IMG/VR virus record: IMGVR_UViG_2526164632_000040
DNA: 30,163 nucleotides
Source of the DNA: a virus
Lineage: Duplodnaviria; Heunggongvirae; Uroviricota; Caudoviricetes
Strand: one strand, 5' to 3'
In this document: positions 25,486 to 28,983 of the stretch, piece by piece
Position numbering within the stretch: the stretch's first letter is position 1
How the letters are laid out: each line of letters begins with the position of its first letter
The notes under the pieces: generated by a model
Told to the model about the DNA's origin: nothing
The model's input: only the letters and a program-made list of their open reading frames with translations
Database searches by the model: none
Position numbers and translations under genes: made by a program

Positions 25486-26585
25486 ATGCATCGTATAGAC
25501 ACGAAAACCGCGCAGAAGGATAAGTTCGGCGCGGGTAAGAACGGTTTTACCCGTGGTAACCCCCAGACCGGCACGCCTGCCACCGTTCTGGATGATGACT
25601 ACTTTGACATGTTGCAGGAAGAACTCTGCAGCGTGGTGGAGGCATCCGGTGCCAGCCTGGAGAAGGGGCGGCACGATCAGCTTCTTACCGCGCTTCGTGC
25701 GCTGCTGTTAAGCCGCAAGAATCCGTTTGGCGATATCAAATCGGATGGCACTGTGCAAACGGCTCTCGAAAACCTGGGAATGACAGACATTCTGAATGAT
25801 AAACAGGATAAAAATGATAATCTGACATCATTGTCGAGCTTAACAGGAATACCGGATGGGCTGGCATTTTTTACAGGTGCCGGAACAATGGATATGACAG
25901 CGCTGACTCAAAATGGCAGGGAAATTTTAAGTAAAAAAACGTATCGGAAACTCTAAAATATTTAACACTTGGGGATGGAACAGGAAGGCTTTTGGGGGTT
26001 CAGGCATTTGGATCATCTGGGACTTATATCAAATCACCTGGTGTAACGAAAATTATAGTGGAAGCCGTTGGCGGAGGTGGTGCCAGTGGTAATTTGTCGG
26101 CAACTGCATCTGGTAACTGTGGTGTAAGTGCTGCCGGTTCCAACGGGGCATATGCTAAAGCATTTTTTTATCAGTCTATACCTGAATCCGTGCAAGTAAC
26201 TATTGGAAGCGGTGGTGTAGCAGGAACAGGACCAGGAGGCTCTGGAGGTGACGGCGGGAATACAAGCTTTGGTGATTTGCTTGTATGTCCGGGAGGAAGG
26301 GGATCAACTCAAGTTCAGCAGGTACCTCCATTTTCAGGGGGAAGTGCAACAGAAGCACCAATTCCTACAGGGCAAGGGATTCTGTTCCATTCAGTTTCAC
26401 GATCAAATTTATGTGGGGCACTTGGACTTGGTGATGATCAGGCGATTGGCGTTGAAAGTATAACCACTACTATGCTTGGGATATACGGTATTGGCGGGAC
26501 AGGTAAATACAATAAGGCGTCATCAGGTCCAGCGACAGGAAATAATGGAAATCAGGGATATATTCTTGTGTGGGAGTATCAGTAA
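25486..26585 (+). pseudogene. tail fiber protein: conserved N-terminal domain plus glycine-rich C-terminal domain, split by an apparent -1 frameshift at an A7 run
   Basis: N-terminal part (25486-25956) has the motif MHRIDT...[28 protein letters not shown] and ends in stop TAA 25954-25956. The glycine-rich ORF is open in the -1 frame from 25935 to 26585. A7 run at 25933-25939. GC content drops from about 25790 onward. Confidence 0.55.
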
Positions 26586-26791
26586 TGAGCGATATTTATG
26601 CAGTCGTACAAAATGGTGTCGTTACAAATCTTGTTGTATGGGATGGTAAGTCAGAGTTTAAGTCAGAAAAAGCGGATATAGTTAAATGTGTTGGAGATGT
26701 TGGTATTGGCTGGTCATATGACGGTAAAAAATTCATCAAGCCTTCCTTAAAACCAGATGTAGTTACTCCTCAAGATGAGTTAGTCAGTTAA
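26585..26791 (+). CDS. hypothetical small protein downstream of tail fiber (68 aa)
   Basis: ATG 26585 with GGGAG 8 nt upstream, overlapping the tail-fiber stop. AT-rich. Followed by a terminator. No family recognised. Confidence 0.35.
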   Translation: MSDIYAVVQNGVVTNLVVWDGKSEFKSEKADIVKCVGDVGIGWSYDGKKFIKPSLKPDVVTPQDELVS

Positions 26792-26800
26792 TTGCTAGTA

Positions 26801-26836
26801 CGCTGGAGATTTTGATAATTTCCAGCGCATTTTTCC
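26801..26836 (+). terminator. rho-independent terminator ending the tail operon
   Basis: Hairpin CGCTGGAGATT-TTGAT-AATTTCCAGCG (one mismatch) followed by CATTTTT. Confidence 0.5.
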
Positions 26837-27202
26837 TTCTGCAGTAATGGATGAAATACCGCGAGTATAATGTTTTTATGCATATGAACCGTTTAAACCA
26901 GAGGAATCCTGACGAAATTGGTTATTGCGCCGAGAGTTGTCGGAGGGGGTGATATAGGTTATCTAATGGAGTAATCATTTTAACATTAATCAGTTTCCCC
27001 ATGACATCCTCTAAACCCTATATAAACGATTTCCTGCTACTGGCATTCAAACGAAATAATTTGAAAGCAATTTAAAGAGTTATTTGTCTAATGTTGGAAG
27101 CCGCAGCCACGTCGTATGCAAGAACGTGCTGCGGCTGGCTGGCGAACTTTCGATAGTGCGAGTATTGAATGATTTCCAGCCGTTACCGATTTTACGTGTT
27201 AA

Positions 27203-27362
27203 TTAGTGAACAAACCACTCGTCAGCAGATTCCCAGGTATCTTTCAGAGTCTCCTGAACAAAAGTTTTTGCAGAATCCTTATCTGCGGTGCGTGTAACAG
27301 AAAGGCCATCGTTGCTGGTGGCTTTTACGATCACCTCTACATCGTCATAACGTTTACTGATG
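27203..27362 (-). pseudogene. dinI: dinI-like gene, C-terminal fragment (interrupted by IS66 copy 2)
   Basis: Reverse-strand translation ...[50 protein letters not shown] matches the DinI C-terminus (ETWESADDWFV) as recalled. Confidence 0.6.
27355..27362. repeat. 8-bp target-site duplication TACTGATG (left copy) of IS66 copy 2
   Basis: Identical 8-mer TACTGATG lies outside both IS ends (27355-27362 and 30067-30074). Confidence 0.8.
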
Positions 27363-27392
27363 GTAAGCGGCTCGCCAGAACCGTATTGATAT

Positions 27393-28964
27393 TTACTGAG
27401 AGGTCAGATCAACTTTCCAGGGCAACAGATCGCGTACCCGGTTTGCCGGCCAATCCTGGATATGCTCAATGACGTAACGCAGCCATTTTTCTGGTTCCAC
27501 ATTGTTCAGACGGCATGTGCCGATCAGCGAGTACAACACCGCCGCATGTTCGCCACCGCTGTCGGAACCCGCGAACAGCCAGTTTTTCCGGCCTACGGCC
27601 ACTCCCCGTAAGGCGTTCTCTGCGATGTTGTTGTCGATTTCCACCCAGCCATTACTGCAGTACACGTTCAGGCCATCCCACTGTTTCAGCAGGTATGCGA
27701 ACGCTTTTGCCGTATCCGAGTGACGCGACAGTGTTTTCATCTGAGTCTGTATCCAGTCATACAGTGACTGCATCAGTGGCGCAGCTCTGGCTTTTCTTGC
27801 CGCCAGACGCTGTTCTGCTGTACATCCCCGGACTTCTGCCTCTATGGCATACAGTTCACCGATACGCTGCAGGGCTTCCGTGGTGATGTCGGTGGGCACT
27901 CTTGCATGCACATCGTGGATTTTTCTCCGGGCATGAGCCATACACGCGGCTTCCGTTATTCTGCCGGATTCGTATAACACCCGGTAACCACCGTAAGCAT
28001 CGGCCTGAAGCACACCGCTGTAACCGGCCAGATGATTTTGTGGATGGATACCTTTCCGGTCCGGTGAGTACGCGAACCAGACCGCCGGGGGCATTTCCGA
28101 ACCGGCGTTACGGTCATCACGGACGTAGACCCACAGCCGGGCGGTCCGGGTTTTACCGCTGCCCGGCTCCTGGACCGGGACGGGGATATCATCAGCATGG
28201 ACTTTACCGGGCATCAGCACATACTGGCGCAGGACGTCATACAGCGGCTCCAGCAGTTCAGCAACGGCACCTGTCCAGCGCCCCAGCGTGGCGCGGCTCA
28301 GCTCCACGCCCTGGCGACGGTATATTTCTGACTGGCGGTATAACGGCAGATGGTCTGCATATTTCCCGGTAACAACATGGGCCAGAAGCCCCGCTCCGGC
28401 ATAACTGCGTGCAATGGGTTTTGAAGGTACTGTTGCCTGCACGATATGGTCGCACCGACAACAGGCCAGTTTCGGACGTTGTGTTTCGATAACCTTAAAG
28501 GCGCTGCTGATAAGCTCCAGTTGCTCTGACACATCACACCCCAGAGGACTGAGGTCACCACCACAGGCCGGGCAGCATTCCTCTTCCGGCCGGATGACCC
28601 GGGTTTCACGGGGAAGTGAGGCCGGTAACGGTTTACGGGCTGAAGACTGGCGCAGGGCGGATGGCAGTACCGGGTCATATTGCTCACCCAGCGTTTCCGC
28701 CATTTCTTCCTGAAGTGCGCTGATTCGCTCCTGTGCTTCCTGTATCTGCCGTTCGGTTTTAGCGCGAAGTTTTTCTGAGCTTTTACCGAACTGCATGCGC
28801 TGCAGTTTCGCAACCAGCGCCTTCAGCCGGTTGATTTCGGAAGCATAAGCCGCCACCCGCTGTGAGAGCAGGCGGTTGTATTTCGCCATCTGGCGGATGG
28901 TGTCCTGTTGCGTCTGCAACAGTGCCCGCAGGCGGGCATTCTCATGAGCAAGTGAGGTGTCCAT
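27393..28964 (-). CDS. tnpC: IS66-family transposase TnpC
   Basis: Translation identical to copy 1 TnpC (523 aa). Confidence 0.8.
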
Positions 28965-28983
28965 ATCCTCACTTTACAACGGG

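Follow-up and report, generated by a model that had tools for sequence, protein, structure and literature searches.

The window analyzed here, the whole 30,163-nucleotide stretch of IMG/VR virus record IMGVR_UViG_2526164632_000040, is an SfV/e14-like Escherichia coli prophage whose baseplate is of the Mu type (gp45-48, YmfQ) and whose integration site is dusA. We describe a 68-residue open reading frame (ORF) lying directly behind its tail-fiber gene, and the spacer that separates this ORF from the convergent gene dinI. A first-pass annotation made from the sequence alone had proposed that the small ORF was acquired with the C-terminal domain of the fiber as a cassette, perhaps as a fiber chaperone. 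It had also pictured the spacer as a likely place for a small RNA, an attachment-site remnant or a tiny cargo gene. The features of the locus are collected in Table 1.

A small reading frame coupled to the tail fiber

The small ORF is found as first reported, with an exact translation. Its translational coupling to the fiber, also proposed at that stage, agrees with the arrangement of the two genes: the fiber stop codon TAA (26583-26585) and the ATG of the ORF overlap as TAATG, and the GGGAG Shine-Dalgarno sequence is encoded within the last W-E-Y codons of the fiber (TGG GAG TAT). The low GC content noted earlier is equally clear, at 0.37-0.39 over 26500-27100 versus 0.55-0.63 in the baseplate genes.

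Table 1. Features of the locus, in window coordinates
Feature	Position	Strand	Description
Tail-fiber gene	25486..26585	+	frameshifted here into 25486-25956 and 25992-26585
Left boundary of low-GC cassette	25770..25781	+	at the invertase inverted repeat of canonical relatives; outer half alone kept
GGGAG Shine-Dalgarno for small ORF	26572..26576	+	8 nt upstream of ATG, read from sequence
68-aa single-domain protein ORF	26585..26791	+	ATG 26585, TAA 26789-26791
ORF core, residues 1-53	26585-26743	+	context-dependent tail = residues 54-68
Intrinsic terminator, end of tail operon	26801..26837	+	11-bp stem (26801-26827), 5-nt loop, T-run CATTTTTCCT
Orphan AT-rich DNA, cassette tail	26838..27013	.	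GC ~0.39, lone TATAAT at 26866-26871
Remnant of pin-type DNA invertase gene	27014..27059	+	last 46 bp (last 15 codons), ..TLYKRFPATGIQTK and stop
pin-dinI intergenic region	27060..27202	.	conserved in many lambdoid and SfV-like prophages; GC-rich hairpin ~27100-27135
dinI, 3' part	27203..27362	-	PF06183 DinI 3.1e-8 (C-terminal part); 5' part at 30067-30163, 0.0044 (N-terminal part)
IS66-family element in dinI	27363..30066	-	2704 bp, ends GTAAGCG...CGCTTAC

The fiber itself is composite. Its N-terminal part is of the SfV/e14 StfP type (phrog_1396, 1.8e-51), while its C-terminal part is a glycine-rich tip (PF21722 Gly_rich_2, 6.8e-8; phrog_863, 1.4e-41). A tail-fiber gene is therefore present as first annotated, but in a frameshifted form: the window has a run of seven A (25926-25932) versus eight in genomes with an intact fiber, which is the sole difference. 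Eight A and an intact 366-aa ORF are found in complete genomes (CP066032, and loci L010, L011 and L013 of our collection), and the fiber of locus L007 is likewise an intact 366-aa ORF. The shorter run is common to several draft assemblies, and may reflect either real slippage or a sequencing error in the homopolymer. One such contig, AIHC01000087.1 of a draft E. coli genome (L009), is identical to the window over 25486-27392.

Homology, fold and synteny of the 68-residue protein

Neither Pfam nor NCBIfam has a family for the 68-residue protein. In PHROGs v4, it matches phrog_14370, a family of unknown function, over nearly its entire profile (E 5.2e-26, residues 1-57 versus profile positions 1-61 of 63). 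A phmmer search of 1.84 billion representative sequences returned 297 relatives at E <= 1e-3, and every alignment spans residues ~1-55. Given the PHROG match and these relatives, the sequence evidence identifies the ORF as a real gene. A Pfam match to DUF5874 was set aside (E 0.0014, below threshold, 21 residues).

The relatives come in two main sizes: among the best 150 cluster representatives, 80 stand alone with 50-80 aa, and 39 have 116-160 aa. In the longer relatives, PF02413 Caudo_TAP spans residues ~42-130 (E down to 1.8e-32); in four relatives of ~180 aa, DUF4376 takes the place of Caudo_TAP. All 58 sampled relatives match phrog_14370, and 13-14 of them also match tail-fiber-assembly PHROGs. 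The N-terminal domain of many ~130-aa Caudo_TAP proteins is 49-55% identical to the 68-residue protein (E down to ~1e-11). The latter does not match PF02413 even at E <= 1; its ~130-aa relatives reach 112.7 bits. The C-terminal helical domain (..LQDAVDL..W..YR..L.RVD...WP..P) is aligned only in longer relatives and is absent from the 68-residue protein. By sequence, then, this protein corresponds to the N-terminal domain found in one class of tail-fiber assembly proteins, devoid of the conserved C-terminal domain. The first-pass annotation had found it too short for a classical tail-fiber assembly protein (Tfa), which fits a protein that corresponds to the N-terminal fiber-binding domain only.

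Homologues were found in 12 E. coli clusters, where a 53-residue core is nearly invariant and is followed by one of three alternative C-terminal tails. This pattern arises because it is within the 3' end of the small ORF (26743-26757) that the shared cassette DNA always stops. The tail type of the window (PDVVT.. / PGVVT.. / PETVT..) recurs in relatives that are 51-60% identical, which argues that the tail seen here is a native form.

These observations bear on the possibility that the ORF has no function and is what decay has left of a two-domain Caudo_TAP gene, cut short by the insertion of the cassette. Such an origin would account for a shared segment that ends within the 3' end of the ORF and for tails that vary by context; two-domain relatives do exist, and the prophage shows other decay, in its frameshifted fiber and in an insertion sequence (IS) within dinI. 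We nevertheless hold it to be very improbable. The first-pass annotation had raised the case that homologues might reveal a larger degraded gene, but the homologues found here do not: the free-standing forms that make up 80 of the top 150 representatives come from diverse taxa, and they are coupled behind intact fibers in Burkholderia, in a Burkholderiaceae metagenome-assembled genome (MAG) and in many viral contigs. The near-invariance of the core and the recurrence of the tail type in these relatives also speak against decay. Furthermore, a six-frame translation downstream of the ORF revealed no remnant of the Caudo_TAP C-terminal domain in any frame.

The AlphaFold2 (AF2) model of the protein (pLDDT 83) has five short strands (3-9, 12-19, 31-34 and two short ones), followed by a low-confidence tail at residues 54-68 (pLDDT 55-74) that differs by genomic context. 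A Foldseek search of the Protein Data Bank (PDB) with this model gave one meaningful match, also the top one: 7ypx_a, the gp25 chaperone of cyanophage Pam3 (prob 1.00, E 0.036, TMq 0.56, rmsd 2.7 Å, 56 columns). Fold matches in BFVD were small uncharacterized phage proteins, a few of which are named tail assembly chaperones. In Pam3, a beta-sandwich formed by residues 1-55 of gp25 grips the TNF-like/glycine-rich tip of the fiber gp24 (PMC9608196; PDB 7YPX). This beta-sandwich has the same size as the core of our protein, the chaperone gene lies behind the fiber gene in both phages, and the client fiber has a TNF-like, glycine-rich tip. The two proteins differ in that gp25 has 162 aa and carries a trimerizing C-terminal four-helix domain, whereas the 68-residue protein ends after the beta-sandwich; their identity is ~23%.

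On the fiber side, a profile built from the C-termini of 28 fibers encoded upstream of homologues matched the whole tip of Pam3 gp24 (E 1.6e-9; 7yfw_a, 7ypx_A; profile positions 5-220). When the fiber was used as a single-sequence query against solved structures, we obtained a weak match to the N-terminal region of Mu S alone. Both partners thus resemble the Pam3 fiber-chaperone pair, the fiber by its sequence profile and the small protein by its predicted fold only. A profile mixing one- and two-domain relatives matched the Mu Tfa protein U; we did not retain this as evidence for the 68-residue protein, since only the C-terminal domains of two-domain members reach U.

Gene order was surveyed in 59 distant loci, which come from Pseudomonas, Burkholderia, Kluyvera, a Burkholderiaceae MAG and many IMG/VR contigs. 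The homologue starts between -16 and +13 nt from the stop codon of an ORF on the same strand in 52 of these loci, a 1-nt overlap being the commonest arrangement. All but one of these 52 upstream ORFs have a glycine-rich C-terminus (22-41% glycine in the last 200 residues) ending in ..(I/V)(I/V)WEY, EEY or FEW. The coupling to fibers is common to free-standing and two-domain homologues. A W-E-Y-type fiber end with a 1-nt stop-start overlap, as in the window, was seen many times in distant loci (L035-L109). One subgroup of homologues, of ~88-100 aa and from environmental viral contigs (L081, L084, L090-L093, L095, L097, L101, L102), has the N-terminal sequence YLVVENNVVTNxVVWDG, a longer insert and an ..IGFTW end; it sits behind fibers ending in ..VFEW and possibly represents the domain in an enlarged form.

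We see little chance that the small protein is unrelated to the fiber and owes its position to accident, for example as a lysogenic-conversion or superinfection-exclusion moron. It is true that PHROGs, Pfam and NCBIfam assign it no function, and that conversion genes often occupy the slot directly behind it. Yet the coupling to one type of fiber tip is tight across Gamma- and Betaproteobacteria and uncultured phages, and many relatives are fused to Tfa C-terminal domains. Moreover, the terminator follows the gene and does not precede it, and the protein sequence has neither a signal peptide nor a membrane segment.

A cassette in place of the invertible fiber segment

In canonical relatives such as enterotoxigenic E. 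coli (ETEC) H10407 and phage SKA5, the gene order is ymfQ, stf, tfa, inverted tfa', inverted stf', pin (+), dinI (-), int (-) and dusA. The interval from ymfQ to dinI is thus occupied by an invertible stf-tfa/tfa'-stf' segment and the pin invertase. Inverted repeats of 20 nt bracket the stf/tfa segment of ETEC H10407 (L006, 1025-1044 and 2897-2916), adjoining the recombinase gene. In place of all this, the window has a low-GC cassette of ~1.24 kb that extends from halfway through the left repeat (25776-25781) until it meets pin, within 46 bp of the stop codon of that gene (~27010-27014). At the left edge, the window and the related locus L055 both track the H10407 repeat as far as AAACCT and then part from it (GGGAATGACAGAC against TGGTTTGGGAGAAG). 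That this edge falls in mid-repeat suggests that the exchange of the tip cassette took place at the invertase crossover site or directly beside it. A gix/hix-type pattern (AAACCNNGGTTT) is absent from the window and from L055, so the boundary argument relies on the inverted repeat found directly in H10407.

Locus L055 shares the hybrid left site of the window and has an intact pin. Its gene order is glycine-rich fiber, small homologue (60% identical to the 68-residue protein), inverted Caudo_TAP tfa', inverted gp53-like stf' and pin. The latter is complete: it encodes 187 aa, ends in ..STLYKRFPVTGIQTK and has both the resolvase catalytic domain and HTH_7. In L055, the small ORF therefore holds the Tfa position of a pin-associated fiber segment, lying in one arm of it as U does in the G segment of Mu. 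Of the parts that make up known Pin/Gin/Cin segments (the e14 P region, the Mu G segment), the outer half of the left repeat and 46 bp at the end of pin survive in the window, but no invertase, second repeat or alternative fiber arm is left. With these gone, the fiber is locked to one tip type.

Among 5426 complete E. coli genomes, only two have the exact configuration of the window, which is also seen in some drafts. The glycine-rich tip with its small ORF is present in 12 of the 5426, on at least two prophage backbones (YmfQ type and DUF2612 type) and at six chromosomal sites. The first-pass idea that fiber tip and small ORF were acquired jointly as a cassette is well supported by this mapping, as it is, together with the chaperone suggestion, by the homology, the fold and the conserved synteny. 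Elsewhere, the genes downstream of the cassette are an acyltransferase, a GDSL esterase or small genes of unknown function. In several E. coli prophages (loci L002, L003 and L004; ~5378-6397 in L002), the small ORF has a 59-aa form, and a convergent gene of the acyltransferase family lies 11 bp behind it. Farther downstream is a piece of an S24 peptidase (repressor-like) gene with a frameshift; cargo genes usually occupy this slot. In two other E. coli prophage loci, L015 (5138-5196, 5.9 copies) and L016 (5212-5250, 3.9 copies), a perfect 10-bp tandem repeat, AAGCCCTGCA, stands directly after an ATG downstream of the same cassette. The repeat of L015 lies upstream of the GDSL esterase gene, and a phase-variation switch for the cargo gene is a possible interpretation.

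The spacer between the small ORF and dinI (26792-27202) measures 411 bp, and the longest ORF touching it has 40 aa, in line with the ~410 bp without an ORF of 60 aa or more reported earlier. The terminator also announced in the first-pass annotation is a strong one: its predicted energy is -15.9 kcal/mol (z = -4.18), and none of 200 shuffled sequences was as stable. Beyond it comes orphan DNA (26838-27013), present only in the same prophage lineage: in two of the 5426 complete genomes, in drafts and in IMG/VR copies. An exact-pattern scan of IMG/VR for this DNA returned the same three contigs only. For 26792-27013 as a whole, we found no match in phages or plasmids, and none in E. coli outside the same lineage. 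The orphan DNA has stop codons in all six frames; six-frame tblastn against all fetched loci gave noise only (best E 0.27), and its folding z-scores (-0.77 and -0.49) show that neither strand beats shuffled sequences. Homology to the equivalent regions of L015 and L016 was considered and rejected: a MAFFT alignment was weakly similar, and blastn at word size 7 was empty.

The orphan DNA gives way to the pin remnant, which is 97.9-99% identical to the 3' end of genes annotated as 'recombinase family protein' or 'DNA invertase' in 88 E. coli genomes and phage SKA5. Only the final 15 codons are left, without the resolvase catalytic domain or HTH_7. The hairpin between pin and dinI has predicted energies of -27.1 (+) and -22.4 (-) kcal/mol, and is supported in locus L019 by a compensatory A>G / T>C change in its stem. 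It is probably a terminator serving two convergent genes. Searching 26400-27500 and 26780-27260 against Rfam with permissive E-value limits yielded noise and one sub-threshold match, to CssrB (RF02799), at 27078-27133. This match scores 22.4 bits versus a gathering score of 76 and covers the 3' hairpin only, 131 model positions being missing. CssrB is a small RNA family of Shigella.

Could the spacer still be an independent element, with the TATAAT at 26866-26871 driving a small RNA or a micro-ORF (33 aa at 26851-26952, or 26 aa at 26922-27002 on the minus strand)? The perfect -10 hexamer noted in the first-pass annotation is indeed there, just past the terminator, in AT-rich DNA that is 96.7-100% conserved within the lineage and that occupies the slot of cargo genes (acyltransferase, GDSL esterase) in relatives. 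The motif is, however, at chance level or below, with three TATAAT in the window versus 7.6 expected. Promoter prediction across the spacer, a check named in the first-pass annotation, gave it no -35 partner and no extended -10. The scan returned one promoter-like site versus 2.8 expected, a weak TTGCTA/GATAAT at 26792-26819 that overlaps the terminator. Added to this are the lack of an Rfam family beyond the sub-threshold hairpin match, of a fold signal, of translated similarity and of any homologue outside one recent lineage. Conservation within that lineage reflects recent shared ancestry, and in L019 an indel of 1 bp changes how the 33-aa ORF ends. An independent element is thus improbable in our view, and the spacer is most likely a deletion scar, for the most part, with terminators and with no hidden gene or small RNA. 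The earlier picture of this slot holds in that a recombination remnant, the 3' end of pin, does sit there; this remnant is not an attachment site, and a small RNA, a promoter or a cargo gene is unsupported.

The dinI gene, annotated as convergent in the first pass, is present but split by the IS66-family element; in L007 it is intact and encodes 82 aa. The element is flanked by an 8-bp target duplication, TACTGATG, at 27355-27362 and 30067-30074, its junctions being read against the uninterrupted L007. It contains ORFs of 523, 115 and 216 aa on the minus strand, and IS66 Pfam domains were found in the identical locus L009. The end of the window coincides exactly with the start codon of dinI.

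A proposed single-domain assembly factor for the fiber tip

We consider it likely, with a probability of roughly 0.68, that the small ORF encodes a single-domain, tip-specific fiber assembly factor coupled to its client, and that it came in together with the tip, on a cassette that ousted the invertible segment and left the spacer as a scar. The protein would be translated by coupling to the fiber, through the Shine-Dalgarno sequence in the W-E-Y codons and the TAATG overlap, and would be matched specifically to the TNF-like/glycine-rich tip encoded just upstream. It probably binds the side of each tip subunit during tip folding and trimerization. As it has no helical C-terminal domain, trimerization would have to be supplied by the fiber itself. 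Fiber tip and small chaperone would form a mobile two-gene cassette, which in this prophage has replaced the stf-tfa/tfa'-stf' segment and nearly all of pin, with a left join at the inverted repeat and a right join inside the 3' end of pin. The 411-bp spacer, made of the operon terminator, ~180 bp of orphan DNA, 46 bp of pin and the pin-dinI hairpin, would then be a by-product of the replacement; at no step does this scheme call for the spacer to contain a promoter, a small RNA or a cargo gene. It is from the observed homology, fold similarity, client homology, synteny and junctions that we infer physical binding, chaperone activity and trimerization without a helical domain.

According to the current Tfa model (PMC9608196, citing a study of Mu Tfa), a variable N-terminal domain binds the fiber tip and a conserved helical C-terminal domain drives oligomerization and trimerization. 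The 68-residue protein shares with the Caudo_TAP proteins (PF02413: lambda Tfa, Mu U/U', P2 G) a homologous N-terminal domain and a gene placed right behind the fiber, but not the PF02413 match or the helical domain that defines the family. Because both are missing, we do not file it as a Caudo_TAP member. We rather view it as a single-domain variant of the Tfa-type chaperones, equivalent to the fiber-binding beta-sandwich with which the two-domain ones (Mu U, lambda Tfa, Pam3 gp25) begin. It is unannotated in Pfam, PHROGs, NCBIfam and RefSeq. Its full-length match, phrog_14370, is a family without functional annotation, and the link to fiber chaperones is made here. Within open-access full text, we found no paper describing the protein, and nothing on PF21722 or on a glycine-rich fiber combined with an invertase in a prophage.

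Several points weigh against the proposed role. The binding and the chaperone activity are predictions from sequence, fold and synteny, and a purely Tfa-like mechanism is not guaranteed for a protein that fails the Pfam Caudo_TAP model and lacks the domain thought to drive trimerization. The profile match to gp24 rests on glycine-rich sequence of high compositional bias. A profile of the stand-alone proteins alone finds nothing in the PDB, neither Pam3 gp25 nor Mu Tfa. The link to gp25 is one of fold, with a Foldseek E value that is modest for a 68-residue model. Since the fiber is frameshifted in the window, the pair may also be non-functional in this strain. Finally, that the spacer would not be transcribed is deduced from its sequence.

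The protein may also be a permanent tip accessory, kept in the virion for receptor binding or tip stability, rather than a transient chaperone. The synteny and homology evidence fits this role equally, the Tfa proteins of Mu and Ur-lambda stay in mature phages (PMC9608196), and a pure binding module without a trimerization domain could just decorate the tip. In contrast, Pam3 gp25, the closest structural analogue, masks the distal loops for which receptor binding has been proposed, and was not detected in virions (PMC9608196). Although the present data do not tell the two roles apart, we regard the permanent accessory as unlikely, if less so than the other alternatives, and favor an assembly factor.

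More broadly, we tentatively propose, at slightly less than even odds, that the free-standing phrog_14370 proteins of ~55-70 aa are widespread, unannotated 'mini-Tfa' chaperones made of the client-binding beta-sandwich alone. The spacer offers a worked example of how the replacement of an invertible segment leaves a locked fiber, an invertase stub and orphan DNA, which is of use in annotation and unsurprising in itself. If the assignment of the small protein holds, it would assign a function to a so far uncharacterized PHROG family, whose members are 'hypothetical proteins' in RefSeq, and would define a two-gene unit, a tip with its own binder, to be moved jointly in phage host-range engineering or considered jointly in host-range prediction. 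If the broader proposal is true, the helical trimerization domain of Tfa would be dispensable for the folding of TNF-like/glycine-rich tips; the family would test the model of trimerization driven by the C-terminal domain, as the N-terminal domain appears to act alone here. Tip and mini-chaperone would then represent a minimal host-range cassette, swappable between prophage backbones at invertase crossover sites.

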